DNA of 64,000 nucleotides from an uncultured bacterium (GTDB lineage: Bacteria; Hydrothermota; UBA3073; NMUJ01; CBEVQO01), in the NCBI GenBank assembly GCA_965552055.1, contig CBEVQO010000001.1:384001-448000 (forward strand), written 5' to 3'. Made by a program: the position numbers and the translations under genes. The notes under the pieces were generated by a model that worked only from the letters and a program-made list of their open reading frames with translations, was not told where the DNA came from and did not search any database. Below are positions 1,264 through 63,273 of this stretch, one piece after another (the stretch's first letter is position 1; each line of letters opens with the position of its first letter).

Positions 1264-1290
1264 ATTTTATTTTAATCTCATAATTGTAAA
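1264..1290 (-). promoter_or_regulatory. Putative promoter TTTACA-15bp-TAAAAT, 5 nt before the M23 ATG (leaderless)
   Basis: Boxes read directly: TGTAAA 1285-1290 and ATTTTA 1264-1269 on the + strand. Confidence 0.6.
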
Positions 1291-1292
1291 GT

Positions 1293-1470
1293 AATTTTTA
1301 GCCCCTCCTCCGCTGTCCCCACCTTCCCGATTAAGTCAGCCCACTACTACCCCCGCTATAACGCAATCAGAAGATAAAGCATAAAACACCAGAGTAACCC
1401 ACAACCCCGTAATGGGCTGACATATCAACCCATATGTAATGTGCTCGGCTACGCCTCGCATTAAAATTTT
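1293..1470 (-). repeat. Dispersed structured GC-rich element, full copy 1
   Basis: Reverse complement nearly identical to 52077-52253 (about a dozen differences by eye); internal 13-bp inverted repeat; GGCGTAGCC mini-hairpin; G-rich end. Confidence 0.92.
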
Positions 1471-1522
1471 ACAGGTCATACCCGATACTGATATGGCTTC
1501 TTACCTCCTATGAAATAATTTG

Positions 1523-1549
1523 TTGACAGAGGGAAATGTTGATTATAAT
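1523..1549 (+). promoter_or_regulatory. Putative promoter TTGACA-15bp-TATAAT
   Basis: Perfect consensus boxes; followed by AGGAGG and GTG at 1568. Confidence 0.75.
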
Positions 1550-1567
1550 TATGCAAAAGGAGGGAGT

Positions 1568-4462
1568 GTGAGACATGTTGCTTTATTATTTCTCATTTTA
1601 ACAGGGACGGCTTTCGCAAAGGTGTGGGTTGTAGATACCACAGGTGCAGAGGGTGACTCATTACAAAAAGCGATTGATTCTGCATGGCAAGACCCGGGGA
1701 TTGATACAGTGCTGGTAAAGAACGGAACCTATCATCTATTTATAAATGACACTATTGGTTTGATAATGCGTGATTCCGTGGTGCTCATGAGTGAAAACGG
1801 AGCTGAAAAATGCACGCTAACAGCAGTATCAGAAGATGGCACAGATACCGCATGGCATGTCATCTATTGCAGTGGATGGGATACTGCATCGCACGCAGCA
1901 ATTATAAAGGGCTTCACAATAAAAGATGGCAATGCAACGGGTCCTTCTACTCACAAGCATGGTGGCGGAATCTTTATCTCCCGTGCATCACCCACAATAG
2001 ACTCGTGCATAATAATAAACAATTATGCCTCTTATGATGGCGGAGGAATTTACATTTATTCCTATTCCTCACCCACACTGAAAAGCAACACAATAACAAA
2101 CAATCACGCTTATGATGATGGAGGAGGGATTTGCATTTCTGACTGTTCTTCACCCATAGTAAATTCGTGTATAATATCAAACAATTCTGCTTCTGATGAT
2201 GGCGGAGGAATTTACATTTATTACCATTCCTCACCAACAATAGATTCATGTGTAATAACAAACAATTCTGCTTCCGATAATGGTGGCGGGATTTACATTT
2301 ATTACTATTCTTCGCCTGTACTGAAAGGTAACACAATAATAAACAACTCCGCTTCTAATGGTGGAGGCGGAATTTACATCTGTGACAATTCTTCACCTGC
2401 ATTATCAGGCAACATGATAACAAACAATTCTGCTAATTATGGCGGAGGAATTTACATTTATTACTATTCTTCACCGACAATAGATTCGTGTATAATATCA
2501 AACAATTCTGCTACTTATGATGGCGGAGGAATTTACATTGATTACTATTCCTTGCCTGTACTGGAAGGCAACACAATAACAAACAACTCTGCTTCCGATG
2601 ATGGTGGAGGAATTTACATTGAAGACCATTCTTCACTCACAATAGATTCTTGCATAATAACACACAACTCTGCTTCCGATGGTGGAGGTGGAATTTATAT
2701 TTATTACTATTCTTCACCTACACTAAAAGGCAACGCAATAACAAACAATTCTGCTAATAAAGGTGGAGGAATTTACATTTATGACCATTCTTCACCCACA
2801 TTATCTGGCAATATAATCGAAAGCAATTCTGCTGATGCTGGAGGCGGGGTTTACATTTATAATTCCACGCCTACATTGAAAGGCAACACTATCTACGCTA
2901 ATTCAAGCGAACTATCAGGTGGAGGAATTTACATTTATTACTATTCTTCACCTGTATTACAGGGTAACATTATTTACAATAATTCAGCTGGATTGAAGGG
3001 AGGCGGAATCCGCATTAATCGGCATTCCTCGCTTACCTCAATAGGAAATATTATTTACAGTAATTCGGCTGATTCAGGTGGAGGTGGGCTTGCTATACGA
3101 AATTATTCACAGGCAAAATTAATGAAATGCGTTATAGGTATGAATAAAAGTGTAAAAGGTGGTGCAATATTTGATACGCTTTATTCAAAAGTTATAATTG
3201 ATAGTTCGTTCATCGTTGATAACGGCGATTATTCTAACGCAGGACTCGCTTATATTGCATCGAATGCAGATTCAGGGATTACATTTAAACTCACATACAG
3301 CCATATATACTACAACACTCTACAACCTGACACTGAAATTGTCAATTTATCCGGTGTAACAATAAATCTTGAAAATAACTTCTGGTGGGATACGACAGAC
3401 GCTGAAATATCTGCAAAAATATATGGTGCAAATGTCCATACTCCATGGTCTAATGACTTTATACCGGGTGTGCCGGGCGAACCTGTTAGCATTGACTCTT
3501 TAAAAAATTACGATAAAGATTTCTCACAGGTTGTTAATTCACTTGACAAAGAAGATACACTTTATATAAGGATTTACGGAGAGGACAGGAATGCACATCT
3601 ACATGAAATCGCAGTTGTAATAATAAAATCGAGTGTTTACCCACAGGGAATAGCAGTTGGGCTCGTTGAAACAGATACAAATTCAGGAATATACGAAGGT
3701 ATCGCTTATGTTCTGGAGAGCACAGGAAATGAGGATATAAGGGATGACGACATAAATCAAATAATACGGGTCGATCCAGCAGGTGATGATATAACACTTC
3801 AAAGCAATATTGATATTACAAAGAAATTCATCGTCAAGTATAAGGGCGGACTACCACAACCCGATATTGCCCTTTCGGATACCATGCATGACTTTGGAAC
3901 ATCTTCCCTTTATGACACAATTGACTGGAAAATGTGGGTAAAGAATGCAGGTAATGAAACTCTATCGGTTGACAGCGTTAAAGTAAATCTGCCTTTTAAA
4001 TTAATCTCACCTTCATTGCCTCAAATCATATTGCCTGGTGATAGCACAGAGTTTACAGTAAGATTCAATCCACAGGATACGGGCAATTTTGTTGATACTA
4101 TGAAAATTTACTCGAATGACCCGGATGAACCTGTTGCAAAAGTGGTATTAATTGCATCATGCGTGGGATTACAGGAAATATTGCCAAAGACATTCAAAGT
4201 AAGCAATATGCCAAATCCATTCAGCAACTTCACACAGATTAAATATCAATTACCAGAAGAAGAAAAAGTTAAGATTGAAATAATAGATATAACAGGAAGA
4301 TTGATAAAAGTATTGGTTGACGAAAAGAAATCACCGGGGTATTATTCTGTAACATGGAAAGGTAAAGATACGCAGGGCAGAAATGTCCCACCTGGAATCT
4401 ACTTCTATCTCATAAAAGCAGGAAAAAATAGAGCGATTAAGAAAATGATAAAATTGAAATAA
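1568..4462 (+). CDS. Secreted right-handed parallel beta-helix repeat protein with Ig-like (ASH/choice-of-anchor D) domain and T9SS/FlgD-type C-terminal domain
   Basis: Start moved to GTG 1568 (SD AGGAGG, signal peptide ...TAFA); about 15 'NNSAxxxGGGIYI' repeats; C-terminus 'PNPF...IIDITGRLIKVL...PGIYF'. Confidence 0.88.
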   Translation: MRHVALLFLILTGTAFAKVWVVDTTGAEGDSLQKAIDSAWQDPGIDTVLVKNGTYHLFINDTIGLIMRDSVVLMSENGAEKCTLTAVSEDGTDTAWHVIYCSGWDTASHAAIIKGFTIKDGNATGPSTHKHGGGIFISRASPTIDSCIIINNYASYDGGGIYIYSYSSPTLKSNTITNNHAYDDGGGICISDCSSPIVNSCIISNNSASDDGGGIYIYYHSSPTIDSCVITNNSASDNGGGIYIYYYSSPVLKGNTIINNSASNGGGGIYICDNSSPALSGNMITNNSANYGGGIYIYYYSSPTIDSCIISNNSATYDGGGIYIDYYSLPVLEGNTITNNSASDDGGGIYIEDHSSLTIDSCIITHNSASDGGGGIYIYYYSSPTLKGNAITNNSANKGGGIYIYDHSSPTLSGNIIESNSADAGGGVYIYNSTPTLKGNTIYANSSELSGGGIYIYYYSSPVLQGNIIYNNSAGLKGGGIRINRHSSLTSIGNIIYSNSADSGGGGLAIRNYSQAKLMKCVIGMNKSVKGGAIFDTLYSKVIIDSSFIVDNGDYSNAGLAYIASNADSGITFKLTYSHIYYNTLQPDTEIVNLSGVTINLENNFWWDTTDAEISAKIYGANVHTPWSNDFIPGVPGEPVSIDSLKNYDKDFSQVVNSLDKEDTLYIRIYGEDRNAHLHEIAVVIIKSSVYPQGIAVGLVETDTNSGIYEGIAYVLESTGNEDIRDDDINQIIRVDPAGDDITLQSNIDITKKFIVKYKGGLPQPDIALSDTMHDFGTSSLYDTIDWKMWVKNAGNETLSVDSVKVNLPFKLISPSLPQIILPGDSTEFTVRFNPQDTGNFVDTMKIYSNDPDEPVAKVVLIASCVGLQEILPKTFKVSNMPNPFSNFTQIKYQLPEEEKVKIEIIDITGRLIKVLVDEKKSPGYYSVTWKGKDTQGRNVPPGIYFYLIKAGKNRAIKKMIKLK
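1958..3090 (+). repeat. Intragenic imperfect tandem repeats of about 72-75 bp (beta-helix rungs)
   Basis: Recurrent aacaattctgct...ggcggaggaatttacattt units. Confidence 0.85.
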
Positions 4463-4463
4463 A

Positions 4464-5639
4464 TTGGGTAAAGGAATTTTCATAAGTGCAACAAAAAGAA
4501 ACATCGGTAAAACATTTTTCATAATCGGATTGATAAAGTTGTTAAAAGAAAAGGGCTTCAAAGTTTCTTATATAAAACCAGTAGCCCAGCATTACATTGA
4601 AGTTAATGGCGATAAAATATCACGAGATGCTTATCTTATGAAAAAAATTTTTGACTTTGATGCAGATTTAAAACTAATGAGCCCATGTATCCTTGCTCCA
4701 GGTATTACTGCTGATTTCATCACTGGTAAATGGAAGCCACCTTTATCAAAAATTTTAAATTCTTACTTAGAATTGCTCGAAGATTCCGATTTCGTATTGA
4801 TAGAAGGAACAGGGCATGCAGGAGTTGGCTCAGTTGTAAAGATATCAAATGCAAGAGTAGCAAAGGAACTAAATGCAAAAGTGGTTTTAATCGCAAGAGG
4901 AGGAATAGGTAGCACAATTGATGAAATAACATTAAACTCTGCACTATTTGAGAAATTCGATAGAAAAGTAGAAGCAATCGTAATAAATAAAATACTGCGG
5001 GAAAAATATACAAAGATAAAAAATACACTTGAAAAAGCATTCAAAGATACAGGAATTTACCCTATCGCATTCATTCCCTATGAGCCAATTTTATCAAGTC
5101 CAACTTTATCGGCAATAAAAGAAGAAGTAGGAGCATCTATCCTTACAACCTATCAAGACCTCGATGTGCATGTTGATAATGTAATTGTAGCAACAATGGG
5201 TGCAGGAGAAGTGCTCGAAAATATAATGAATAATAATGCAAAATCTTTAATAATAACATCGGGTGATAGAACAGATGTAATACTGGCATGTTGCACATTG
5301 TATTATCAGGGTAGAAGAAACATCGCAGGAATATTGCTGTCATCTCCACCTTCAAGAAATGTATTGAAAATACTCGAAAAGATAAATATAACGGTTCTCT
5401 ATTCAAAAGAAGATGTGTATTCTCTTGCTGCAAAAGTAAACAACTTAACTGTAAAAATACATCCGCATGATAAAGAAAAGATAAATCTTGCATGGAAACT
5501 GGTGCAAAATTTTCTGGATTTCGAAAAATTTATGGAATTCACGGAAAAAGAAGAAAAAGTAACCGTTACCTTCAAATGGAAAGCAACATTTTACAAAGTT
5601 CTACATTTTTTAAAGAAAATTTTCTATTTCGGAAGATAA
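4464..5639 (+). CDS. BioD-like AAA domain plus DRTGG domain protein (like the N-terminus of class II phosphate acetyltransferase)
   Basis: 'GKT' P-loop, 'YIKPV', 'LIEGTGHAGVG', 'ITSGDRTD'; no PTA catalytic domain. Confidence 0.8.
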   Translation: MGKGIFISATKRNIGKTFFIIGLIKLLKEKGFKVSYIKPVAQHYIEVNGDKISRDAYLMKKIFDFDADLKLMSPCILAPGITADFITGKWKPPLSKILNSYLELLEDSDFVLIEGTGHAGVGSVVKISNARVAKELNAKVVLIARGGIGSTIDEITLNSALFEKFDRKVEAIVINKILREKYTKIKNTLEKAFKDTGIYPIAFIPYEPILSSPTLSAIKEEVGASILTTYQDLDVHVDNVIVATMGAGEVLENIMNNNAKSLIITSGDRTDVILACCTLYYQGRRNIAGILLSSPPSRNVLKILEKINITVLYSKEDVYSLAAKVNNLTVKIHPHDKEKINLAWKLVQNFLDFEKFMEFTEKEEKVTVTFKWKATFYKVLHFLKKIFYFGR

Positions 5640-5641
5640 AT

Positions 5642-8131: not shown

Positions 8132-8143
8132 GTCCCCTCCTTC

Positions 8144-9495: not shown

Positions 9496-9500
9496 CGTAA

Positions 9501-9527
9501 ATTTTAATCCAATTATTTTAATGTCAA
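9501..9527 (-). promoter_or_regulatory. Putative promoter TTGACA-15bp-TAAAAT, 5 nt before ATG 9495
   Basis: TGTCAA 9522-9527 and ATTTTA 9501-9506 on the + strand. Confidence 0.7.
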
Positions 9528-9565
9528 CAATCTTATCAAAATTTTCGCACTTTTTCATTTTACCC

Positions 9566-9592
9566 TTGACAGATTAAAAAATGAATTAAAAT
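9566..9592 (+). promoter_or_regulatory. Putative promoter TTGACA-15bp-TAAAAT, 6 nt before the MoxR ATG
   Basis: Boxes read directly; no SD. Confidence 0.72.
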
Positions 9593-9598
9593 AAGAGT

Positions 9599-10591
9599 AT
9601 GAAAGATATTGAACTTGTTGATAAAATCAAAGAAGCAAAGCAAAAGTTACTTTCGGAGATTCATAAAGTCATAGTTGGTCAGGATGAAGTTATCGAGCAG
9701 ATACTTATTTCACTTCTGGCAGAAGGTCATGCTTTAATCGTTGGAGTACCGGGTCTTGCCAAAACTTTAATGGTTAATACACTTTCAAAACTACTTTCTT
9801 TATCATTTAACAGAATTCAATTTACTCCCGACCTTATGCCACTCGACATAATAGGCACAGACATAATTCAGGAAGACCCAAAAACAGGCAGGCGTTATTT
9901 CGTATTTGTAAAAGGTCCGATTTTCGCAAATATAATTCTGGCTGATGAGATAAACAGAGCGCCACCAAAGACACAATCAGCATTATTACAGGCAATGCAG
10001 GAATACAGGGTCACAGTCGGTGGCAAAACTTATGAACTGGAGAGACCTTTTTTCGTACTCGCTACACAAAATCCAATAGAGCAGGAAGGAACATATCCAC
10101 TGCCAGAGGCACAAATCGACCGCTTCATGTTCGAAATTAGAATAACTTACCCTTCTTTTGAAGAAGAGGTAAAAATAGTTGAGGAAACCACAAGCAATTA
10201 TAATCCCGATGTAAAAAGTGTTATGACAAAAGAAGAATTATTGGAGTTGCAGGCACTTATTCGCAGAGTACCTGTATCTGATGAGGTTTTGAAAGCAGCT
10301 GTAAGATTAACATGGCTAACAAGACCGGTTGATGATAGTGTCCCTGAATACATTAAAAAATGGGTGAAATGGGGAGCATCACCAAGAGCTTCTCAATACT
10401 TAATCCTTGGAGCAAAAGCAAGATGTCTGCTTCAAGGAAGATTAACACCATCTTTTGAAGATATAGAATATGTGGCTTTGCCTGTTTTGAGACACAGAAT
10501 TATTACAAATTTCGTCGCAGATGCAGAAGGTATAACATCAGAAGACATAATCAGAAAATTGTTAAAAGATAAGAAATGGCAGAAAATTTAA
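9599..10591 (+). CDS. moxR: MoxR family AAA+ ATPase
   Basis: GVPGLAKT Walker [46 protein letters not shown]. Confidence 0.95.
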
Positions 10592-10927: not shown

Positions 10928-10935
10928 ATTCCCTC

Positions 10936-11726: not shown

Positions 11727-11753
11727 ATTATATCAAAAATTTTAATTTGTCAA
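11727..11753 (-). promoter_or_regulatory. Putative promoter TTGACA-15bp-TATAAT, 6 nt before the DUF2089 ATG
   Basis: Perfect boxes. Confidence 0.75.
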
Positions 11754-11975: not shown

Positions 11976-12002
11976 ATTGTAATAAAAATAAGAAGATGTA
12001 AA
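11976..12002 (-). promoter_or_regulatory. Putative promoter TTTACA-15bp-TACAAT ahead of a 19-aa micro-ORF (11972..11913)
   Basis: Same geometry as the other promoters; ATG codons 3 and 6 nt downstream. Confidence 0.5.
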
Positions 12003-12006
12003 GGGT

Positions 12007-12090
12007 AAAATTTAATGCGAGCGTAAGAGAGCCTATCACCAATGGGTTGTGAGGAGGGTGGTGGGGACAGGGAGGTGGGGCTAACAATTT
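12007..12090 (+). repeat. Short, diverged copy of the dispersed element (both ends kept, central stem-loop missing)
   Basis: tttaatgcgagcg...atgggttg matches the 5' end and gtggggacag.ggaggtggggcta matches the 3' end of 52077-52253. Confidence 0.8.
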
Positions 12091-12832
12091 ATTTTTTAAA
12101 GTAATTTATTGCATTTTGGAATATTTTAAGTCCTGTTTGATTGTAGATTTTTCTTTTATCCGGGTGATGGTATGGTGTCAGGAAGCGCTCTGGGTGTGGC
12201 ATCATTCCCAATATTCTTCCTGTTTTATCGCATATACCTGCTATTGCTTCTGATGAGCCGTTTGGATTTAAGGGATATTTCATCGTCGGTGTGCCTTTCT
12301 CATCAACATATTGAAAAACAATTTCATCCTCTCTTTTCAATTTCTCGATATAATCATTGTCTCCCACAAATCTTCCTTCTGCATGTGCAACTGGCAAATC
12401 GATAAATTCTATTCCTTCTGTAAAGATGCATTTCTTTGAAGATACTTTTAGATGCACCCATCTTGCTTCGAAATGACATGATTTATTCATAACAAGGCTG
12501 ACCCTGTAATCACCGAGTAATCCGCATTTTACAAGTACCTGAAAGCCATTGCATATACCTATAATCAAATTGCCTCTTTCAACGAAATCAAGTATTTCAT
12601 CTTTCAAATATTTTTCTATAAGCAATGCAAGGATTTTACCGCTCGCTATGTCATCACCATAAGTGAAGCCCCCGGGGAAAGATATAATTTGGTGCTCTTT
12701 TATCAGATTTTTATTTTTTATGAGTTCTGTAATCAGGATTTCTCTTACTTTTGCTCCACACAATTCAAAAGCGTGTTTTGTTTCTTTATCGCAGTTTGTA
12801 CCCGGTGCAAGTATCTGGAGTACTTTTATCAC
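12089..12832 (-). CDS. purQ: Phosphoribosylformylglycinamidine synthase subunit PurQ
   Basis: PGTNCD, PGGFTYGD, GICNGFQ, AHAEG, NPNGS, GMMPHPER. Confidence 0.95.
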   Translation of the reverse strand: MIKVLQILAPGTNCDKETKHAFELCGAKVREILITELIKNKNLIKEHQIISFPGGFTYGDDIASGKILALLIEKYLKDEILDFVERGNLIIGICNGFQVLVKCGLLGDYRVSLVMNKSCHFEARWVHLKVSSKKCIFTEGIEFIDLPVAHAEGRFVGDNDYIEKLKREDEIVFQYVDEKGTPTMKYPLNPNGSSEAIAGICDKTGRILGMMPHPERFLTPYHHPDKRKIYNQTGLKIFQNAINYFKK

Positions 12833-12836: not shown

Positions 12837-12863
12837 ATTATAATTCTCTGATGGATATGTCAA
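12837..12863 (-). promoter_or_regulatory. Putative promoter TTGACA-15bp-TATAAT, 4 nt before the purQ GTG
   Basis: Perfect boxes. Confidence 0.75.
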
Positions 12864-12869
12864 TAATTC

Positions 12870-12897
12870 TTGACATCGAGATAATTTGGTTTATAAT
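12870..12897 (+). promoter_or_regulatory. Putative promoter TTGACA-16bp-TATAAT
   Basis: Perfect boxes, divergent from the purQ promoter. Confidence 0.7.
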
Positions 12898-13485: not shown

Positions 13486-13512
13486 TTGACATTGAAAGAA
13501 ATTGATTTAAAT
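13486..13512 (+). promoter_or_regulatory. Putative promoter TTGACA-15/16bp-(T)TAAAT(T) before ATG 13519
   Basis: Boxes read directly. Confidence 0.6.
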
Positions 13513-20048: not shown

Positions 20049-21956
20049 TTATTTTTGCAATTTTTGCAATCTTTTATATACACCTTTTACTTTTGGATTT
20101 ATTCTCAATGCTTTTTTGTACATTTTAATTGCATTTTTAATTTCTCCTTTTATCTCGTAGAGTAAACCAAGTTTGGCATAAGGTTCAGCGTATCCTTGGA
20201 TTTTGAGTCTTATTGCTGCTTTATACATTTCTTCTGCCATTTCATACTTACCCTTTACAAAATAAAGAAAACCAAGCCGTGTAAAATGCATTGCTCGAAT
20301 ATAATCTTCTTTTGTAACATTAATCACTTTCCTATACATTATAATGGCTGAATCTATTCGGGTCTTCATCTCATACAATCTGCCAAGCATCGAATAGGGT
20401 ACATAGCAATCAGGGTCTTCCTTTATCTTCCTTTTTAATTCAATAAAAATACTGTCGTGGACAATTTGTTTTAAAGGAGTAATTGCTGGATTGAAAAATT
20501 TATATCTCTTAATGCCAGGAGCATCCTTAATATAAATTACAAATTTATCGTCAAAATAACAAAGATTCCATTTTTCACTATTCCATAAATAGTCATGAAT
20601 AGGGTAATTCGTTGCTCCGAAAACATAATCGACTAAAACACATTTTATCTTGTATTTTTCCAATATTTTTTCGAAATTTTCTTTAGCATACAGCACTTTC
20701 AAATAGTTTTCAATTATATCTTTACCGCACACATCGCTGCGACCATCAATGAATACTTTAAAGCCACGCCAGATTAAGTATTCACCAATATTATATGTAT
20801 TGAATATGTTCCCACAAATTTCATTCTTTTTCAAAAAATCTACTGCTTTTTTGGGCAAATTCCTTTCATCGATTCCAAATTCTACAAATCTTTTAACTCC
20901 GCCACTTATTATCTGTCCACATTTAAATGTATATACCGTAAGTAATAAAATTATTCCTTCAATGAGAAATCCAGCCCATTTTTTCTTTACCTTTATTCTG
21001 GCACTAAAATTATAAGCAACAATTGGCGCAGATATTATTAAAAATATAGGTATATTCCTTATAGCGAAAATTGGAAGAACTACAAAAAATATAAAGAGAA
21101 AAACATGCAGAAGATTAATTCTTTTGTTAAAAAAGAAGGAAAAAATACAAAAGATTAAGTATGTTTTAAATAAGTTAAGTGGCAAAATTCCTTTGTGTGC
21201 AAGATGAAAAAGTGGATTATATTCACTAATAAAAGAAAGAACATAGCGCGATTCTTTGAAAGCAAACAGCCATTGAATGGGTTTTATCAAAATTTTATAT
21301 CCCCATGGATTAATCAGGATGCCTGTGCATGCTATAATTAAAAAACACAGATGATTCAAACATCTTTTAAAGTTTCTTTTTAAAAGATTAGTCATTAGAA
21401 AAATTCCTATGAGTGATAATCCGTATAGAAATCCAAGATGAAAATTTGACCATAAAGTAAAAATAAGAAAAATCAACAGTGCAATTTTCTTAAACGGGAT
21501 TTTACTTTTTTCGTATGAAAACAATGCTAATTGAAGTAAGCTAAGTAATAAAAAGCTGATAATTTGTGCACGGGTTCTATAACCAGGTCCAAATGATAAA
21601 ATTAAAAGCATAAATATTAAAGCACAGATATAAACATCCGCTTTTAGAACTTTTTGTGCAGTTAAAAAAACTATCAGCAGAGTTAGAGAAAGGAGTAAAT
21701 ATTTTAGAATGATGAGACCTTTAGCTCCTGTTTTTGAGTAAACGGAATAAAAAATAACGGAAGAAAGCCAGTGGTGTGGTATCCATTCTCTGCCATATGC
21801 AGTATAAGTGAAAATATCTTTGCGAGGGATGGTATGGTTTTCTAAAATGTACTTTCCTGTATAAAAATGCAACCAAATATCAGGGTCAGAGATTTTAAAA
21901 ATCGACATCGATGAGAGAAAAAGAAATAAAAGTAAAATTAGCCGCAAATTTCTCAC
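20049..21956 (-). CDS. Multi-TM membrane protein with C-terminal TPRs (GT-C-like fold, putative)
   Basis: 'DPDIWLH..TG..I' first-loop motif, many TM helices, 'VFIDGR', TPR repeats. Confidence 0.65.
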   Translation of the reverse strand: MRNLRLILLLFLFLSSMSIFKISDPDIWLHFYTGKYILENHTIPRKDIFTYTAYGREWIPHHWLSSVIFYSVYSKTGAKGLIILKYLLLSLTLLIVFLTAQKVLKADVYICALIFMLLILSFGPGYRTRAQIISFLLLSLLQLALFSYEKSKIPFKKIALLIFLIFTLWSNFHLGFLYGLSLIGIFLMTNLLKRNFKRCLNHLCFLIIACTGILINPWGYKILIKPIQWLFAFKESRYVLSFISEYNPLFHLAHKGILPLNLFKTYLIFCIFSFFFNKRINLLHVFLFIFFVVLPIFAIRNIPIFLIISAPIVAYNFSARIKVKKKWAGFLIEGIILLLTVYTFKCGQIISGGVKRFVEFGIDERNLPKKAVDFLKKNEICGNIFNTYNIGEYLIWRGFKVFIDGRSDVCGKDIIENYLKVLYAKENFEKILEKYKIKCVLVDYVFGATNYPIHDYLWNSEKWNLCYFDDKFVIYIKDAPGIKRYKFFNPAITPLKQIVHDSIFIELKRKIKEDPDCYVPYSMLGRLYEMKTRIDSAIIMYRKVINVTKEDYIRAMHFTRLGFLYFVKGKYEMAEEMYKAAIRLKIQGYAEPYAKLGLLYEIKGEIKNAIKMYKKALRINPKVKGVYKRLQKLQK

Positions 21957-21960: not shown

Positions 21961-21988
21961 ATTTTATATTTTAATCTGGCTTTGTCAA
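21961..21988 (-). promoter_or_regulatory. Putative promoter TTGACA-16bp-TAAAAT, 4 nt before GTG 21956
   Basis: Boxes read directly. Confidence 0.6.
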
Positions 21989-23403: not shown

Positions 23404-24536
23404 AGGATTATCTTTCAGGGCATTTAATTCCTCCTGCGATAAATTTGGCTTATATTGCTATATTTACCAGAATTTTTCCGCCTTCTGCTTATGGTAAATT
23501 TATTTTGTTGATGGTTACCATAAATTTTTGTTTTAACTTTTCATCGACATGGATTTATAATGGAATAATAAGATTTTATCCCGAAGAGAAAGAGAAAATT
23601 TCTAAAATTTTGTTTCTTTTAACCCTTTTATCATCACTTCCTTTTATTTTCATTTTTTTCTTTTTTGAAGGTATTTATTTCAAATTAGGAGCGTTATTAT
23701 TTATTTTGAAAAGTATTTTTGATAATTCACTTGCATTTTTACAGGCACAAAGAAAAGCAAAAAAATTCTCTGCCATGCAAATAGCTTATTCTTGTTTAAA
23801 TTTAATCTTTTCTTTCATTTTTGTGAAATTTCTGAGAATTGGACTAAATGGCTTAGTTATGGGAGGAATTTTTGCTGTTCTTGTTTTGCTTTTTATGTTG
23901 AAAGAGGTAAAAATTGAATTTTATTTTGAAAAGAAGATAGCAAAAGCAATGTTAAATTACGGTGTCCCTTTAACATTTTCTAACCTTTTTTCACTTTCGC
24001 TTATTTATATTGACAGGTACTTTATAAACTTTTTTTTATCAGAAAAAGAAGTTGGTATTTATTCGGTAAGTTATACATTAGCAGAGCGTTTTATAATTTT
24101 GCTGACTTCGTTATTTGTGACAGCAAGCAGACCTATATGTTTTCAGCTATATACCAAATCAAAAGAACAGGCTGTAAAATACAATAAGAAAATTTCAAAA
24201 ATATTTGTAGTTATAGGTTTATGTCTTACTCTTTTAATTATAACATTTTCAAAATTGATTTTAAAAATATTTGCAGGGAAAGAATTCTGGGAAGGAATCA
24301 CAATTTTCCCCTATATAACATTTTCTGCTTTTTTCTTCGGTTTACAGAAAATCAGCGAAACTTTTATACTTCTGGAGAAAAAGACAAAGATTTTGCTTTT
24401 TATCTTTATGATAGCATGTTTCTTAAACATCGCACTTAACTTTGTTTTAATCCCTAAGTTTGGCATTACAGGAGCAGCTATTTCGACATTTATTGCATAT
24501 TTAACACTTTTTATTCTTACCGCAATAAATAGTTGA
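23376..24536 (+). CDS. Oligosaccharide flippase (Wzx/MOP family)
   Basis: 'FTRIF.P..YG', 'IDRYFI...VGIYS', 'LIPKFGITGAAI'. Confidence 0.88.
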   Translation: MLGEFRKDIKDYLSGHLIPPAINLAYIAIFTRIFPPSAYGKFILLMVTINFCFNFSSTWIYNGIIRFYPEEKEKISKILFLLTLLSSLPFIFIFFFFEGIYFKLGALLFILKSIFDNSLAFLQAQRKAKKFSAMQIAYSCLNLIFSFIFVKFLRIGLNGLVMGGIFAVLVLLFMLKEVKIEFYFEKKIAKAMLNYGVPLTFSNLFSLSLIYIDRYFINFFLSEKEVGIYSVSYTLAERFIILLTSLFVTASRPICFQLYTKSKEQAVKYNKKISKIFVVIGLCLTLLIITFSKLILKIFAGKEFWEGITIFPYITFSAFFFGLQKISETFILLEKKTKILLFIFMIACFLNIALNFVLIPKFGITGAAISTFIAYLTLFILTAINS

Positions 24537-24559
24537 CAAGGATGTATTGAGGTTAAAAT
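24533..24559 (+). promoter_or_regulatory. Putative promoter TTGACA-15bp-TAAAAT, 5 nt before the tdh GTG
   Basis: The -35 box overlaps the flippase TGA stop. Confidence 0.72.
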
Positions 24560-29690: not shown

Positions 29691-29717
29691 ATTATAATCA
29701 AATTAAAAATTTGTCAA
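29691..29717 (-). promoter_or_regulatory. Putative promoter TTGACA-15bp-TATAAT, 7 nt before ATG 29683
   Basis: Perfect boxes. Confidence 0.75.
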
Positions 29718-29741
29718 TTAAAAATTTTTTATAAAAAACTA

Positions 29742-29768
29742 TTGACAATTTGATATTTTGTTTAAAAT
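29742..29768 (+). promoter_or_regulatory. Putative promoter TTGACA-15bp-TAAAAT, 8 nt before ATG 29777
   Basis: Boxes read directly. Confidence 0.72.
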
Positions 29769-33368: not shown

Positions 33369-33395
33369 ATTTTATTCAAAAAAATAATTTGTCAA
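33369..33395 (-). promoter_or_regulatory. Putative promoter TTGACA-15bp-TAAAAT, 7 nt before ATG 33361
   Basis: Boxes read directly. Confidence 0.7.
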
Positions 33396-41161: not shown

Positions 41162-41188
41162 AATTTAAACGAAAACTCAATTTGTCAA
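41162..41188 (-). promoter_or_regulatory. Putative promoter TTGACA-15bp-TAAATT directly before mreB
   Basis: Boxes read directly; ATG and GTG lie 2 and 5 nt downstream. Confidence 0.62.
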
Positions 41189-41198
41189 CAATTTTTTC

Positions 41199-41226
41199 TT
41201 GACAGATATAAATATTGCTATAAAAT
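41199..41226 (+). promoter_or_regulatory. Putative promoter TTGACA-16bp-TAAAAT
   Basis: Divergent from the mreB promoter; ATG 41233 lies 6 nt downstream. Confidence 0.6.
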
Positions 41227-49217: not shown

Positions 49218-49588
49218 AGTCCCCCCAATTCAAAAATATCCACAGGAATTAATTTTTTGTTAACGGGGTCAACAGCAAGCCCCATAGCTTCAAGTGAGAT
49301 AGAACCAAGCACAGGTATGCCTTCTGGAAGACAAATTGTAACAGGGCTCACAGTCCTTTTGCCTCTTACTTCAAGAGCAACATAAGTCCACTTCTTTTTG
49401 ACTTTTCTTCCATCACTCAATTTAACTTCGATTTCTCCCAATATCGGCAAATTGCAACTCTGCACAACATCTTCGGGAATTGATGTTAAATGAGAACCTG
49501 TATCAACAATCATCTCTATTTCTTCCAAAAATTCAAACTCTCCATTTTTAACTATCCCAATTTTAACTTTTTCTTTAAATACACTCAT
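49205..49588 (-). CDS. Clan AA (retropepsin-like) aspartic protease, AF_0612 type
   Basis: 'IVDTGS', 'LG...LEAMGLAVDP'. Confidence 0.85.
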   Translation of the reverse strand: MSVFKEKVKIGIVKNGEFEFLEEIEMIVDTGSHLTSIPEDVVQSCNLPILGEIEVKLSDGRKVKKKWTYVALEVRGKRTVSPVTICLPEGIPVLGSISLEAMGLAVDPVNKKLIPVDIFELGGLCVG

Positions 49589-50892
49589 CTGAATTTTTTA
49601 ATAATATCTTCAATTATTTCCTTTGTCAAGTTTAAGTTACTGGTTTCACAGATTATCCTAACTACCGGTTCTGTATTTGATTTTCTTACATGCAAAAAGC
49701 CCTCTTCAAAACCCAGCCATAATCCATCTTCCAGATTAATATCTGCATCAGGAAAATCTTCCAGTATTTCATCTACAGGTATTTCCTTATCCCATCTTAT
49801 TTTTTCCTTCATCATATAATATTTCGGAAGTTCATCAACGATTTCCGATAATTTTCTATCTTCTTTCGTCAGCAAATCAAGTATAAGAGCCACTCCTGTT
49901 AAGGAATCCCTTGTAAAATTTATTTCGGGATAAATAACACCTCCATTTCCCTCACCACCATATTTTGCACCTACCTCGAGCATCCTTGATACCACATTTG
50001 CTTCGCCTACTGCAGTCCTGTAAACTTTTGCCCCGATTTTATCCGCAATAACTTCAATCAATCTGCTCGTTGATAAATTTGTCACAATTTTATCTCCTTC
50101 TTTTATAACATTTAAACCGCAAAGAGGAAAGGTATATTCTTCGCCGATTGCCCTTCCTTTATCATCAACTATCGATAACCTATCGCCATCGGGGTCTGTT
50201 GCAAAGCCCACATCTAACTTTTTATTCTTTACAATTTCGCACAAATCCTTGAGAGCAGAGGGAACAGGTTCGGGAGACCTTGTAAATTCACCCGTCAATT
50301 CACAGTTTATAGAATAAATTTCACAATTCAATTTTTCCAGTAAATATTTTAACGCATACGAAGTTGCACCATTACAGCAATCAATTCCTACTTTGAACCC
50401 CTTCTCTTTAATCCTTTCTACATCTATTTTTTCAAAAATTTTGTTAATATGTCTTTCAATTGCTTTCCCATCCTTTTCTTCTTTCCCTTTACCTTCTTTA
50501 TAATTTTTGCTTTCATAGATTTTGTAAAATTCATCGATTTCTTTTTTTGACAAAAATAATCCTTTTTCTGATACGAATTTAAATCCGTTCCATTCTTCAG
50601 GGTTATGGCTTGCTGTGACAACGACACCTCCTGCCAGCTTCAATTCTCTTACATTTAAAAGCAGAGTGGGAGTAGGTGCGATATCAAAGTCAACAACATC
50701 ACATCCCGCGGATAACAACCCTTCTTTAAGTTTTTGTAGCAAAATTTTGCCAGATCTACGGGTATCACGGCAGACACCGATTTTGCCATGCTTATAGGTG
50801 CTAAAAGCTTTTCCAAGCGTAAAAGATAAACTCTCATCAAAATCTTTTCCATAAATTCCCCTTACACCCGATATAGTAAAAAATAAAGCCAT
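49585..50892 (-). CDS. glmM: Phosphoglucosamine mutase / alpha-D-phosphohexomutase
   Basis: TASHNP, DPDGDR, GGEGNGG, RKSNTEP; upstream of glmS. Confidence 0.85.
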   Translation of the reverse strand: MALFFTISGVRGIYGKDFDESLSFTLGKAFSTYKHGKIGVCRDTRRSGKILLQKLKEGLLSAGCDVVDFDIAPTPTLLLNVRELKLAGGVVVTASHNPEEWNGFKFVSEKGLFLSKKEIDEFYKIYESKNYKEGKGKEEKDGKAIERHINKIFEKIDVERIKEKGFKVGIDCCNGATSYALKYLLEKLNCEIYSINCELTGEFTRSPEPVPSALKDLCEIVKNKKLDVGFATDPDGDRLSIVDDKGRAIGEEYTFPLCGLNVIKEGDKIVTNLSTSRLIEVIADKIGAKVYRTAVGEANVVSRMLEVGAKYGGEGNGGVIYPEINFTRDSLTGVALILDLLTKEDRKLSEIVDELPKYYMMKEKIRWDKEIPVDEILEDFPDADINLEDGLWLGFEEGFLHVRKSNTEPVVRIICETSNLNLTKEIIEDIIKKFR

Positions 50893-52048: not shown

Positions 52049-52075
52049 ATTTTGCAGAAATAATAAATTTGTCAA
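52049..52075 (-). promoter_or_regulatory. Putative promoter TTGACA-15bp-CAAAAT
   Basis: Followed by AAGGGGG SD and ATG 52034. Confidence 0.6.
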
Positions 52076-52076
52076 T

Positions 52077-52253
52077 AAAATTTTTAATGCGAGCGAAGCG
52101 AGCACATTACATATGGGTTGATATGTCAGCCCATTACGGTGATGTGGGTTATTCTGGGTTTTTACGCTTTATCTTCTGATTGCGTTATAGCTGGAGTAGT
52201 AGTGGGCTGACTTAATCGGGAAGGCGGGGACAGCGGAGGCGGGGCTAAAAATT
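52077..52253 (+). repeat. Dispersed structured GC-rich element, full copy 2
   Basis: Matches the reverse complement of 1293-1470; GCGAAGC at 52093-52099; stem 52125-52137/52199-52211. Confidence 0.92.
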
Positions 52254-52254
52254 A

Positions 52255-52281
52255 TTGACAGAAGTAGGGATGGATTAAAAT
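52255..52281 (+). promoter_or_regulatory. Putative promoter TTGACA-15bp-TAAAAT
   Basis: Immediately outside the element end; ATG at 52293. Confidence 0.72.
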
Positions 52282-53562: not shown

Positions 53563-53565
53563 AAC

Positions 53566-53592
53566 TTGACAAGAAGAAATTTTGAATATAAT
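53566..53592 (+). promoter_or_regulatory. Putative promoter TTGACA-15bp-TATAAT
   Basis: Perfect boxes; followed by GAAGGAG SD. Confidence 0.75.
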
Positions 53593-54543: not shown

Positions 54544-54544
54544 T

Positions 54545-54628
54545 GCCGAAGTGGCGGAATGGTAGACGCGGCGGACTCAAAATCCGCTGGGGGTTAACCC
54601 CGTGGGGGTTCAAGTCCCTCCTTCGGCA
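54545..54628 (+). tRNA. tRNA-Leu (anticodon CAA), CCA not encoded
   Basis: GCCGAAG/CTTCGGC acceptor stem, GCGGA-CTCAAAA-TCCGC anticodon arm, long variable arm, GGTTCAAGTCC T-loop. Confidence 0.96.
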
Positions 54629-54634
54629 CTTGAA

Positions 54635-59733: not shown

Positions 59734-61166
59734 GGGCTGTATTTTACTAAATAAGTTTTTGGATGAGGCGAGACATACATAACTTTGAATTTCTCGATGC
59801 TATCTTTGATTGCTGGTATCAGGTATTTGTAAGTGGTCATCGTCCATCTGAAAGCATCTATAACTATGTAATCTGCTTTTTTTATAGCCTGCCACATTTT
59901 TATGTGATCTGAAGTCATTGGATAGCCAAATGCTTTTCTATCCGAAAAGAACCACATAAATTCCGGTTTTCTGCACAATATTTTGGCATCCCTCTCAGTA
60001 TATTTTTTACACCATTTTGCGACATCAAAGTAAGAAATCCAGTCGGGTGGATAAGGTCTTCTAACTTGCTCGGAATACCGGAAGATAGCGATAAGGGCAA
60101 AAATTGAAAATATTGCGGTTAAAATATGTAAACCAAATTTTATCTTTTCCACGCTCTTTGAAACAAAGTATAAAACGAAAGGAAAAACAGGAAGAATGAA
60201 TCTTGCCCCGGTCCATACTTCTGGCCAGATAAGAACAACACCCATATAAAAAATCAGGATAAGATGCAAAATGTTAACTTTTCTCAATTTCAACAATGTA
60301 AAGATAAAACCTGCTATCATCAGCCCTGTAATTATTAACGATGCAAAAGTGTTTATTTTACCGATTAATAAAATTTTCGACATCAAAAATCCGCTATACA
60401 TCTTCAAATTGTGCCATATTCTTTTCAGCAAATCCAAAAATGTTATCCTCCCGAGTTCAGGTGCATATGGGTTTTTCCAGAGAAATTGTGCAAAATAACT
60501 TTCGCCTCCACCAGCATACCTGTTGCGTATAAGCCATGGCAAAATCAAAACAAAAATGATTAAAAAAGCAACTAAAAATTCGCGATATTTTTTCCTGATT
60601 AAAAGATAAAGCAAAATTGCAGGAAAATAAGCAATGCCAACGCTCCTAACATAATAAGCGAATATGCTCGCAAAGACGGAAAAAATAAGATAAAGAAATC
60701 TCCCCTCTTTTTCCCATTTCAAGAATAGATAAACAAAAAGTAAAGAAGAAAAGATAAAAGGAACTTCAGATAAAATGACAGAATGATATTTCAGAAAAAG
60801 AGGGTTTATCGCGAATAAAGGCAACAAAAAATTTACTCCTTTTTCCCATATCATTTGCAGGATAAGGTAAAATAAAATTGTGGACACCATTCCCATTAAG
60901 AAAACCCAGATTTTAAATGCCATTATATTCCTGCCGAAAAGTAAGTGAGGAATGGTCAGTAGAAAGGGGAAACCGGGCGGAAAATGTTTTGCAGCAGGCT
61001 CATCGGGCTTATAAATCTCTTTGTAACCTTTACCCGAAATTATCGATTCACACAAAGCAATATAACAAACATTATCGCCACCTGTGGATAATTTTTTATC
61101 GAATAAAAATACTCCAAAAAGAAATTGGCAACAAAGAGAAATTATAAGAATAAAGTGCTTTTTCAT
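59730..61166 (-). CDS. GT-C fold (ArnT/PMT-like) membrane glycosyltransferase
   Basis: 'GGDN..Y..L..SI..G.GY', 'FPPGFP', 'LSEVPF', many TM helices. Confidence 0.75.
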   Translation of the reverse strand: MKKHFILIISLCCQFLFGVFLFDKKLSTGGDNVCYIALCESIISGKGYKEIYKPDEPAAKHFPPGFPFLLTIPHLLFGRNIMAFKIWVFLMGMVSTILFYLILQMIWEKGVNFLLPLFAINPLFLKYHSVILSEVPFIFSSLLFVYLFLKWEKEGRFLYLIFSVFASIFAYYVRSVGIAYFPAILLYLLIRKKYREFLVAFLIIFVLILPWLIRNRYAGGGESYFAQFLWKNPYAPELGRITFLDLLKRIWHNLKMYSGFLMSKILLIGKINTFASLIITGLMIAGFIFTLLKLRKVNILHLILIFYMGVVLIWPEVWTGARFILPVFPFVLYFVSKSVEKIKFGLHILTAIFSIFALIAIFRYSEQVRRPYPPDWISYFDVAKWCKKYTERDAKILCRKPEFMWFFSDRKAFGYPMTSDHIKMWQAIKKADYIVIDAFRWTMTTYKYLIPAIKDSIEKFKVMYVSPHPKTYLVKYSP

Positions 61167-61172
61167 CAAATT

Positions 61173-61219
61173 ATTTTAAATGAAATTTTATGTTGTCAAT
61201 TCTTTTTCTTGATTATAAT
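61173..61219. promoter_or_regulatory. Back-to-back promoters sharing TTGTCAA: (-) TTGACA-15bp-TAAAAT and (+) TTGTCA-15bp-TATAAT
   Basis: ATTTTA 61173-61178, TTGTCAA 61193-61199, TATAAT 61214-61219. Confidence 0.68.
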
Positions 61220-61222
61220 AAA

Positions 61223-61594
61223 ATGATGTATGTGCTTGAGGTGAAAAGGAAGTTTTCAGCAGCTCACAGTTTGCGAGGATATGGTGGGGAATGCGAAAAA
61301 TTACATGGACATAATTTTGAAGTAACGCTGAAAGTAAAAGTTGAAAAATTAAATAAAATAGGAATCACGATTGACTTTAAGAAGATAGATGAAATATTAA
61401 AAGAAATACTGGAAGAGCTGGATCATCAAAATTTAAATGAATTACCTTATTTTTCGGATAAAAATCCATCTGCTGAAAACATAGCAAAATTTATTTTTGA
61501 GAAAGCAAAGGGGAGAATAAAAGAAGGGAAAGTTATTGAAGTAAAAGTAAGCGAAACAGATAAATATTCTGTCAGTTATCGTGAAGATTTGTGA
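61223..61594 (+). CDS. queD: 6-carboxytetrahydropterin synthase
   Basis: FSAAH, C..LHGHN, IDF, LDH..LN, NPSAEN, SET. Confidence 0.93.
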   Translation: MMYVLEVKRKFSAAHSLRGYGGECEKLHGHNFEVTLKVKVEKLNKIGITIDFKKIDEILKEILEELDHQNLNELPYFSDKNPSAENIAKFIFEKAKGRIKEGKVIEVKVSETDKYSVSYREDL

Positions 61595-62198
61595 ATTATT
61601 TACGAGCATTCAGGGTGAAACCACTTTTCAAGGATTGCCTTTCACTTTTATAAGAGTAGCAGGTTGCAACCTCAATTGTAAATGGTGTGATACGCAATAT
61701 GCAAGGGGCAATGGTAAGGAAATGAAAATAGATGACATTATAAATTTTGTGAAAAGACAGGGTTTAAAATATGTGATGGTTACAGGTGGAGAACCCCTTT
61801 TGCAGGAAGAGACTTATATTTTATGTGATGATTTACTGAAAATGGGATACACTGTACTGGTTGAAACAAATGGTTCTATTCTGGTTGACAAATTGAAAAA
61901 AGAAATAATAAAGATTGTGGATGTAAAATGCCCTTCATCCGGTGAACACGAAAAAATGAAGTTTGAGAATTTCAAATATTTGACAGAAAAGGACGAAATA
62001 AAATTTGTAATAATGAATAGAAAAGATTATGAATATGCTAAGAGAATCATTCAAGAATTTGATTTATGGGGCAGAAAGATTTTATTTTCTCCTGTTCATA
62101 ATGTTATGTCTGCGAGAACTCTGGCTGAATGGCTTCTGGAAGACAAATTAAATGCAAAATTACAGATACAATTGCATAAATATCTTTCTATGAAATGA
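61581..62198 (+). CDS. queE: 7-carboxy-7-deazaguanine synthase (radical SAM)
   Basis: F.SIQGE, GCNLNCKWCDT, TGGEP, ETNG, QLHK. Confidence 0.93.
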   Translation: MKICELFTSIQGETTFQGLPFTFIRVAGCNLNCKWCDTQYARGNGKEMKIDDIINFVKRQGLKYVMVTGGEPLLQEETYILCDDLLKMGYTVLVETNGSILVDKLKKEIIKIVDVKCPSSGEHEKMKFENFKYLTEKDEIKFVIMNRKDYEYAKRIIQEFDLWGRKILFSPVHNVMSARTLAEWLLEDKLNAKLQIQLHKYLSMK

Positions 62199-62593
62199 TT
62201 GAATTTGTAAAACTTGCTTTAACTCCAATTGTTTTAATATCTGCAGAGGGATTAATAATTTTAACTGCACAGAATAGATATGGAAGGGTTATTGACAGAA
62301 TCAGGGAATTGTACAGCATCTATCGTGCAGATGTTGAACGGCGCGATATTTTAAAGACAGAACTTTTAATTTTACTTAAAAGGGGCAAAATTTTGCGTAA
62401 TGCTATGATTTTTTATTTCACTTCGATTTTCTTTTGCCTCATCACATCTATGGGTTTATTTTTAAGAATTAGACAGTCTTTTTGTATAATTACTTTTTCA
62501 ATTGCTCTCTTTCTTTTTATTTTGGGAGTAATTTTCAGCATCTGGGATTTGATTTTTTCTTATAAAGCTGTTGAAAAAGAGGTGAGTTTATGA
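62195..62593 (+). CDS. DUF2721-like membrane protein
   Basis: 'ALTP.VLISA.GL......NRYGRVIDRIR'. Confidence 0.8.
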   Translation: MIEFVKLALTPIVLISAEGLIILTAQNRYGRVIDRIRELYSIYRADVERRDILKTELLILLKRGKILRNAMIFYFTSIFFCLITSMGLFLRIRQSFCIITFSIALFLFILGVIFSIWDLIFSYKAVEKEVSL

Positions 62594-63240
62594 AAGCGGT
62601 TGTTCTTGCATCAGGTGGCATTGATTCCTGTGTTTGTCTTGCTATCGCCATACGCCATTATGAAGTTGCGTTGCTACATGTAAACTATGGACAAAGAACA
62701 GAAAAAAAAGAATTGGAATGCTTTGAAAAACTCGCAAATTATTATGGAATAAAGGAAAAACTGATTGTAAATTTGCCTCATTTGAAAGAAATAGGGGGCT
62801 CAAGTTTAACAGATGAAAAAATGGAAATAGAAGAAGGTTTAAGTGATGATATACCATCTACTTATGTTCCTTTTCGCAATGCCAACATTTTGGCTGTTGC
62901 TGTCTCCTGGGCAGAAGTTATAGGTGCTGAGCGCATATTCATAGGAGCAATCGAAGAAGATGCGCCTGGATATCCTGATTGCAGAAAAAAGTTTTACGAT
63001 GCCTTCCAAAAAGTGATAGAAACAGGAACGAAAAAAGGAAACATTAAAATTTGCACACCTTTGATAAAATTGAAAAAGTCAAAGGTTGTCGAAATCGGTG
63101 CAAAATTGGGCGCACCTTTTCATCTCACATGGTCATGCTATAAAAATGAGGAAAAAGCATGCGGTAAATGTGATAGTTGCTTGCGGCGCTTGCGAGCATT
63201 TAAAGAAGCAGGAATAAAAGACCCTATCCCTTACGAATAA
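62590..63240 (+). CDS. queC: 7-cyano-7-deazaguanine synthase
   Basis: SGGIDS, YGQR, TYVPFRN, YPDC, TWSCY, CGKCDSC. Confidence 0.96.
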   Translation: MKAVVLASGGIDSCVCLAIAIRHYEVALLHVNYGQRTEKKELECFEKLANYYGIKEKLIVNLPHLKEIGGSSLTDEKMEIEEGLSDDIPSTYVPFRNANILAVAVSWAEVIGAERIFIGAIEEDAPGYPDCRKKFYDAFQKVIETGTKKGNIKICTPLIKLKKSKVVEIGAKLGAPFHLTWSCYKNEEKACGKCDSCLRRLRAFKEAGIKDPIPYE

Positions 63241-63246
63241 AATTAA

Positions 63247-63273
63247 TTGTCAAAGTTATTTTGAGGTTATAAT
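63247..63273 (+). promoter_or_regulatory. Putative promoter TTGTCA-15bp-TATAAT, 5 nt before ATG 63279
   Basis: Boxes read directly. Confidence 0.62.

Follow-up and report, generated by a model that had tools for sequence, protein, structure and literature searches.

Genome-wide 15-bp promoter spacing in an uncultured member of the Hydrothermota and its candidate determinants

In housekeeping promoters of the sigma70 type, the spacer that separates the -35 hexamer from the -10 hexamer is most often 17 bp; this length is reported to predominate across 49 species with mapped transcription starts (PMC12641261). It has long been asked what fixes the optimum, whether the sigma factor, the core enzyme or the twist of the DNA, and nearly all work on this has used E. 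coli-like enzymes. Here we analyse the promoters of an uncultured bacterium (GTDB lineage Hydrothermota; UBA3073; NMUJ01; CBEVQO01; assembly GCA_965552055.1), starting from a stretch of 64,000 nucleotides (contig CBEVQO010000001.1, positions 384,001 to 448,000; hereafter “the window”) for which an earlier reading of the letters alone, the original prediction, had proposed housekeeping promoters with a 15-bp spacer. The genome holding the window (G000; 2.23 Mb, 35.6% GC, 97% complete) has a sharp peak at this length.

The original prediction had also held that 15 bp is poorly used by the E. coli enzyme. This agrees with a review in which such spacing is described as energetically much less favourable (PMC10911233), and with the energy penalty given there and in PMC9440211, but not with a library study reporting high expression from 15 to 19 bp, best at 17, when the boxes are consensus (PMC8695583). 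E. coli rRNA promoters are described as having a suboptimal 16-bp spacer (PMC5101437). They resemble the promoters of G000 in their consensus-like boxes away from 17 bp; they are, however, single promoters in a 17-bp genome, whereas in G000 the whole genome peaks at 15 bp. The MerR family, with 19-bp promoters and again consensus-like boxes, likewise represents individual regulated promoters within a 17-bp genome.

Spacers of about 14 bp are found in promoters of the sigma B/sigma F type. In the account of an S. aureus structure, the “-10” is partly read by domain 3 as duplex, the short spacer is nominal in that the melted position is unmoved, and the consensus is a separate one, GTTTWW / GGGWAW (PMC11156646). 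G000 has in common with these a sigma70-family promoter whose spacer is nominally short; its boxes, unlike theirs, are TTGACA and TAWAAT. The sigma ABfr promoter of Bacteroidota is given as TTTG/TANNTTTG (PMC6847099). Bacteroidota have altered both boxes, whereas the order to which G000 belongs keeps TTGACA and shortens the spacer, and TTTG/TANNTTTG is not matched. A full-text literature search, with most subscription journals outside its coverage, turned up no article describing a lineage whose housekeeping promoters have their optimum at 15 bp.

Promoter spacing and start-site proxies

Among the 1818 TTGACA hexamers of G000, TAWAAT follows at 14, 15, 16, 17 and 18 bp in 12, 253, 47, 17 and 8 cases, over a far-offset background of 5.1. 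When the 30 nt that follow each TTGACA were shuffled 200 times, the count at 15 bp averaged 7.7 and reached 17 at most, and the reversed pattern produced two matches, against 253 observed. The spacing histogram with shuffled controls proposed alongside the original prediction peaks at 15 bp, with neither a peak at 17 bp nor an excess in the shuffles, and 15-bp spacing is confirmed as a real genome-wide feature of G000. Coding interiors cover 89% of the genome according to a simple open reading frame (ORF) caller, yet 229 of the 253 sites fall outside them. The 416 TAnnnT boxes at 15 bp include 132 TAAAAT, 121 TATAAT and 38 TAAATT; a C just 5' of the -35 box is enriched (54%), A/T tracts lie upstream, and the spacer sequences are mutually unrelated. 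The TTGACA/TAWAAT pairs at 15 bp are very likely the housekeeping promoters of G000.

Two rulers for the transcription start, both of them proxies, were available: the start codons of long ORFs and the 5' ends of tRNA genes. Start codons of long ORFs peak 32 nt past the first T of TTGAC[AT] (185, vs 43 at the canonical 35), and their ATG or GTG lies 5 nt past the -10 box in 135 of 421 sites and 6 nt past it in 56, the 5-nt gap being as expected of leaderless messages. Leaderless-rich genomes of the Actinobacteria or Deinococcus-Thermus type have the start codon directly past the -10 box at many operon heads; in G000, unlike there, leaderless starts with their 5-nt gap serve as a ruler for the start site. 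A 15-bp pair stands directly upstream of 20 of the 47 tRNA/tmRNA genes (three of these can also be read as a 17-bp pair with a weaker box), one tRNA has a 17-bp pair only, and the 16S gene is preceded by two tandem 15-bp pairs. The tRNA ends fall 6-9 nt past the -10 box, and eight tRNAs start 33-34 nt past the first T of TTGACA, so that a canonical start at 35 nt would land within them. We considered a shifted register, in which the -10 box is read 2 nt downstream and the spacer becomes 17 bp, and rejected it: the last position would be T in 38% only and start codons would follow after 3 nt. The start seems to shift closer to the -35 box, so that the short spacer would not be just nominal as it is in the sigma B/sigma F type, and transcription would begin about 32 nt past the first T of TTGACA. 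With promoters this close, tRNA leaders in G000 would measure some 1-4 nt, on several contigs.

Could the pattern be something other than a promoter, be it an artefact of AT-rich DNA, a repeat or a transcription-factor site? The genome is indeed of 35% GC with AT-rich intergenic DNA, but a count of 253 against a shuffle maximum of 17, spacers unrelated to one another, orientation at a constant distance toward gene starts, tRNAs and rRNA, and the recurrence of the same boxes at 16 or 17 bp in relatives make this scarcely credible. The sites resemble sigma70/RpoD promoters in having both hexamers at consensus (-35 TTGACA; -10 with fixed T, A and final T), the C before the -35 box and upstream A/T tracts, and in preceding housekeeping genes (mreB, purQ), tRNA and rRNA; they differ in a peak at 15 bp, outside 17 ± 1, and in a start predicted to lie 5 nt past the -10 box and some 32 nt from the first T. 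Judged by these features, the predicted promoters work like sigma70 housekeeping promoters but lie outside the spacing of that family.

For the window, the original prediction had listed 21 sites, and each is found at its position with its spacer, 15 bp in 18 of them and 16 bp in three. Twelve of the 18 are exact TTGACA and TANAAT pairs; the other six have one mismatch (TTGTCA at 61193+ and 63247+, TTTACA at 1290- and 12002-, TAAATT at 41188-, CAAAAT at 52075-). Over the whole window, exact pairs number 12 at 15 bp, three at 16 bp and none at 17 bp. The accompanying claim that 16 bp occurs at three sites only, and 17 bp at none of the pairs scored, holds for exact pairs. A looser -10 box adds one TTGACA pair with 17 bp, at 49629-, and at 13486+ a fourth with 16 bp. 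The promoter-like sites are:

1264..1290, minus strand: TTTACA and TAAAAT, 15 bp; promoter-like, 5 nt to the ATG of an M23 peptidase gene (488-1258)
1523..1549, plus strand: exact consensus pair, 15 bp; upstream of a large beta-helix protein gene
9501..9527, minus strand: TTGACA and TAAAAT, 15 bp; divergent partner of 9566+
9566..9592, plus strand: TTGACA and TAAAAT, 15 bp; 6 nt to the ATG at 9599 (AAA ATPase)
11727..11753, minus strand: exact consensus pair, 15 bp; 6 nt to an in-frame ATG
11976..12002, minus strand: TTTACA and TACAAT, 15 bp
12837..12863, minus strand: exact consensus pair, 15 bp; upstream of purQ (GTG at 12832, gap 4 nt)
12870..12897, plus strand: consensus pair, 16 bp; back to back with 12863-
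21961..21988, minus strand: TTGACA and TAAAAT, 16 bp; upstream of a TPR protein gene (GTG at 21956)
24533..24559, plus strand: TTGACA and TAAAAT, 15 bp; upstream of threonine dehydrogenase
29691..29717, minus strand: exact consensus pair, 15 bp
29742..29768, plus strand: TTGACA and TAAAAT, 15 bp; divergent partner of 29717-
33369..33395, minus strand: TTGACA and TAAAAT, 15 bp
41162..41188, minus strand: TTGACA and TAAATT, 15 bp; upstream of mreB
41199..41226, plus strand: TTGACA and TAAAAT, 16 bp; back to back with 41188-
52049..52075, minus strand: TTGACA and CAAAAT, 15 bp; upstream of a glycosyltransferase gene
52255..52281, plus strand: TTGACA and TAAAAT, 15 bp
53566..53592, plus strand: exact consensus pair, 15 bp; upstream of an acyl-CoA dehydratase activase gene
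61173..61199, minus strand: TTGACA and TAAAAT, 15 bp; its -35 box shares bases with that of 61193+
61193..61219, plus strand: TTGTCA and TATAAT, 15 bp; upstream of queD
63247..63273, plus strand: TTGTCA and TATAAT, 15 bp

Divergent promoters are packed back to back at 12837-12897, 29691-29768, 41162-41226 and 61173-61219, their -35 boxes overlapping or 6-24 bp apart. Short, GC-rich and mutually similar stretches abut four promoters on the upstream side (about 1291-1315, minus; 12003-12027, minus; 52076-52100, minus; 52230-52254, plus). Records from the same species are about 99.7% identical and uninformative on constraint. Two genes of the window are possibly of archaeal type: glmM (49585-50892, minus) has its top score, above the cut-off, with the archaeal-type model TIGR03990, and purQ (12089-12832, minus) matches two PurQ models, below or above the cut-off.

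Spacer length across the phylum

We scored 150 other genomes of the phylum for TAWAAT at 15 bp, and 48 of these at 16, 17 and 18 bp as well. The 15-bp count never exceeded 16, and the sample holds no family-level relative of G000. On TAWAAT alone the trait would look limited to one family; this was ruled out by the other two genomes of the order (G001 and G070, the sister family), which use TAWWTT as their -10 box and also peak at 15 bp (54/13/2 and 38/11/3 sites at 15/16/17 bp). No other of the 48 genomes has more than 16 TAWWTT sites at 15 bp. The spacing is thus present in all three sampled genomes of the order, and the lineage-specific promoter grammar that the original prediction had proposed is borne out more widely than in this one genome. 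Family f3, which seemed to lean to 15 bp (TAWAAT 16/9/4), was discarded as a further case: with its own TAWWTT box the counts are 16/54/39, and its three genomes peak at 16 bp.

Elsewhere in the phylum the optimum varies. Family f4 sits sharply at 17 bp (G055, for example, with 3/5/265/6 sites at 15/16/17/18 bp), G017 and G066 peak at 16 bp (5/224/17/1 and 3/245/26/1), and G083 of family f29, whose RpoD looks ordinary, peaks at 18 bp (2/7/26/45). Many of the 48 genomes are mixed between 16 and 17 bp and a few have no signal. Almost no TTGACA-TAWAAT pairs at 15-18 bp are found in G078, G058, G088 and G032, whose families may use another promoter grammar.

These counts bear on the idea that the holoenzyme of G000 still prefers 17 bp and that its near-perfect boxes are offset by a poor spacer, perhaps tuned by a global factor. 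Such dampening would fit boxes unusually near consensus in G000, the good expression that consensus boxes at 15 bp are reported to give in E. coli (PMC8695583), and the suboptimal 16-bp spacer described for E. coli rRNA promoters (PMC5101437). However, the 17-bp family, with 146-265 exact sites, and the 16-bp families, with 224-245, have boxes equally near consensus, the rRNA and tRNA promoters, which need top output, have 15 bp, and single-base insertions should wear down so sharp a peak were 17 bp the better length. Stand-alone CarD was not found in 30 genomes, 28 of which gave only matches of Mfd length; this also leaves the accessory mechanism suggested by the original prediction without a candidate of CarD type there. 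We consider dampening highly improbable.

A quick RpoB tree built on 20 genomes groups those with 15 bp, all three of them, in a single clade (Shimodaira-Hasegawa-like approximate likelihood ratio test, SH-aLRT, 91), sister to 16-leaning families, and the spacing label requires five changes in total. Read on this tree, the 15-bp state would have arisen once, in the ancestor of the order, and the optimum of the phylum would have shifted repeatedly. The nearest named homologs of one G000 sigma factor are labelled candidate division WOR-3 (47% and 43% identity), by which measure WOR-3 is the likely phylum. Beyond GTDB, a protein search for close kin scored 7994 candidates, none of which exceeded about 35% identity over the full length; a contig scan with RpoD returned four unrelated genomes only, and a metagenome scan with RpoB over 1/64 parts found no close kin.

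Sigma factors, core enzyme and DNA topology

The sigma set of G000 comprises RpoD (575 aa, encoded behind dnaG), a 272-aa sigma factor with regions 1.2-4 behind htrA, FliA, and two short proteins of ECF size. FliA stands with FlhG-like, FlhF-like and FlhA-like genes, named from sequence, in a flagellar cluster (L010; G000:C1:471500-477000). RpoD has regions 1.1-4 yet scores below the NCBIfam RpoD cut-offs; among 180 RpoD matches in 188 genomes, only family f15 is as weak in score. Its C-terminal identity to relatives in the phylum is 0.466, the lowest of 15, while RpoB (0.545), RpoC (0.578) and the small sigma factor are in range. Aligned with E. coli sigma70 it has the changes R441K, V454P, E458N and T440M, one residue is deleted after region 3.0, the 3.2 linker is two residues longer, and the acidic finger is gone. 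The combination K441/P454/N458 is unique to G000 among 38 genomes. Like a sigma70-type RpoD it retains the tryptophan pair together with the recognition helix of region 4.2; what sets it apart is the absence of R441, V454, E458 and the acidic finger. The altered primary sigma factor that the original prediction had envisaged is seen here in regions 2.4 to 3.2. By eye, the first 120 residues of RpoD (L002:490-2217, plus strand) look like two tandem copies of region 1.1.

In E. coli, R441, V454 and E458 are described as reading the extended -10 element (PMC5101437). Regions 2.4 and 3 are pictured as a pincer on that element, and TGn promoters as leaning to longer spacers (PMC2613000); for sigma S, E458 has been linked with spacer tolerance (PMC10911233). 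Bases in relatives were counted on partial sequence (340-397 kb each). Promoter sequence varies along with the residues. The canonical TG at -15/-14 is carried by 22 of 45 f4 sites, where the residues are intact, by 4 of 65 in G017 and G066 (A454, D458), by 20 of 421 in G000 and by 1 of 31 in G001; TG at -16/-15 occurs in 0/45, 20/65, 121/421 and 3/31 of the same sets. The optional extended -10 TG at -15/-14 is thus depleted and not a feature of G000 promoters, the TG being shifted one base upstream. The comparison of residues with spacers covered 38 genomes, each having 15 sites or more and two being represented by RpoD of the same genus: all nine D458 genomes have a mean spacer of 16.06-16.51, and all 19 genomes above 16.51 retain V/I454 and E458. 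As these alignments have it, the link between residues and spacer is real but partial, and confounded by descent.

Our proposal, to which we give not quite even chances, is that the sigma factor no longer makes its region 2.4/3.0 contacts with the DNA directly upstream of the -10 box, and that this loss allows region 4 to dock closer by 2 bp. The grip of regions 2.4/3.0 on this duplex would normally help to fix the path and phase of the spacer; loosened partly it would yield an optimum of 16 bp, and loosened fully one of 15 bp. Without the grip, spacer DNA could take another path, and region 4 on the flap would meet a closer -35 box.

In the sister family, neither a protein query nor two Pfam families recovered RpoD from G001 or G070, nor did TIGR02393, run for G001 only, in assemblies fragmented into about 130 contigs each; 7 of 186 other genomes likewise lack an RpoD match at the same threshold, and dnaG in G001 and G070 has another gene next to it. 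It is likely that rpoD was lost in the sister family. The small sigma factor is the only group 1/2-like sigma in both genomes. Its gene in G000 (L011:2081-2899, minus strand, G000:C5) sits within an htrA-sigma-M23 peptidase block that is conserved throughout the phylum, and its best match in the one Prevotellaceae genome compared (G151) is encoded directly behind an HtrA gene. We take this G151 protein to be the Bacteroidota primary sigma factor. The latter is reported to be without region 1.1 (PMC6847099), as the small sigma factor is, and the sister family has T at -8 (30 of 31 sites in G001), a further likeness to the sigma ABfr system; unlike Bacteroidota, G000 still has a large RpoD and A at -8 in 321 of 421 sites, as do 58 of 65 in the RpoD-bearing G017 and G066. 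The sister family seems to depend on the small sigma factor, which, related to the Bacteroidota primary sigma, would read its 15-bp promoters. The base at -8 suggests two different readers with one spacer, RpoD-like in G000 and another in G001. What the RpoD of G000 and the small sigma factor share, in alignment, is the absence of the three extended -10 contacts.

A different account starts from the small sigma factor itself: it would have taken over housekeeping in the ancestor of the order, bringing its own 15-bp geometry, with RpoD then drifting here and being lost in the sister family, as in Bacteroidota. The missing RpoD in both sister genomes (against 7/186 others), the changed dnaG neighbour, the accelerated RpoD of G000, the best G151 match with the same htrA neighbour, the absence of region 1.1 reported for the Bacteroidota protein (PMC6847099) and a 3.2-4 linker shorter than that of RpoD all fit. 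Yet A at -8 and TG at -16/-15 in G000 are unlike the sister family and like RpoD-bearing lineages; the RpoD of G000 is intact, with tryptophan pair and region 4.2 retained, still behind dnaG; the small sigma factor is no more conserved inside the order than outside, its short linker is also found in 16-leaning families, and with about 130 contigs per sister genome the loss of RpoD is unproven. This account strikes us as distinctly unlikely.

If instead the core sets the shorter distance, the beta flap and the beta' zinc-binding domain would hold region 4 of any sigma factor nearer to region 2. Two different sigma types going with 15 bp in one order would suit such a core, as would reports that the flap positions region 4 (PMC2613000) and that sigma domains are fixed on the core (PMC11156646), and G000 has changes beside the flap tip as well as an R-to-K change in the zipper. 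Our comparison, which covered RpoB and the first 860 residues of RpoC, showed the flap tip, zipper, lid and clamp helices to be free of indels, and a visible change in the beta flap, which the original prediction had raised, did not materialise as an indel. Columns common to the three 15-bp genomes number six in RpoC (in those 860 residues) and about a dozen in RpoB, few and mostly conservative. The zipper R-to-K change was dismissed as the cause in the order, being confined to G000 while G001 and G070 retain R. A core-based cause is unlikely in our estimation, though worth keeping in sight. In G001 and G070, rpoB is not followed by rpoC, which lies elsewhere (loci L061, L062, L163, L165, L190, L191).

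Over-twisted DNA would offer yet another route, reverse gyrase and a weak gyrase bringing boxes 15 bp apart into the 17-bp orientation for a standard holoenzyme. Reverse gyrase is present in all three 15-bp genomes and above the cut-off in none of 17 other class members, and the sole gyrA-like gene of G000 (G000:C1:27241-29580, plus strand) encodes 780 aa, scores below the TIGR01063 cut-off and is without the GyrA-box seen in G070. Given its reverse gyrase and divergent gyrA, G000 may be without a negatively supercoiling gyrase. However, gyrA is normal in G001 and G070, and reverse gyrase exceeds the cut-off in 11 of 48 genomes, including the 17-bp G068, G006 and G126 and the 16/17-bp G010 and G052, which rules it out as the sole cause; the DNA twist proposed in the original prediction is not supported by itself. 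Two base pairs amount to about 69 degrees and 6.8 Å, some ten times what modest positive supercoiling would contribute over such a stretch, which also weighs against twist. In E. coli, spacer length is reported as minor for supercoiling sensitivity (PMC8695583). We regard this explanation as very unlikely.

Several observations weigh against our own proposal that lost sigma contacts are the cause. The small sigma factor is without the three extended -10 contacts throughout the phylum, 17-bp genomes included, although in the latter it is presumably not the main reader. Nine of the 38 genomes lean to 16 bp or less despite intact V/I454 and E458, and the 18-bp G083 also retains both, so that these residues explain only part of the pattern. 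Most of the D458 genomes probably belong to a single clade, which reduces the correlation to few independent events, and with 15 bp having arisen once, any change on that single branch correlates with the trait. That RpoD reads the 15-bp promoters of G000 we infer from motif likeness to RpoD-bearing 16-bp genomes only. Sigma regions 2, 3 and 4 are described as anchored at fixed places on the core (PMC11156646), which argues that the core sets the distance. Finally, a 120-kb sample of G050 with a looser -10 box gave 7 sites at 16 bp and 15 at 17 bp, against 94/42 genome-wide; small samples and the choice of pattern can mislead.

Implications for promoter evolution

Tentatively, and with more doubt than confidence in the whole, we picture spacing, which is taught as fixed at 17 bp, as evolvable (15-18 bp in one phylum) and set largely by a few sigma residues in regions 2.4/3.0, together with a second, independent hand-over of housekeeping within the order from RpoD to a small sigma factor of Bacteroidota type. 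The sister family may show loss of RpoD without a rewriting of the -35 box. Predictors trained on 17 bp will misjudge the promoters of such genomes, and a sigma factor preferring 15 bp, if true, would provide a promoter set that is orthogonal by geometry. The phylum offers natural enzymes that use the same boxes with sharp optima at 15, 16 and 17 bp, and swaps of sigma factor or core between them could answer directly what fixes the optimum. It is likely that the transcription machinery can be tuned in its promoter spacing, and the setting is predicted to hinge on few sigma residues.

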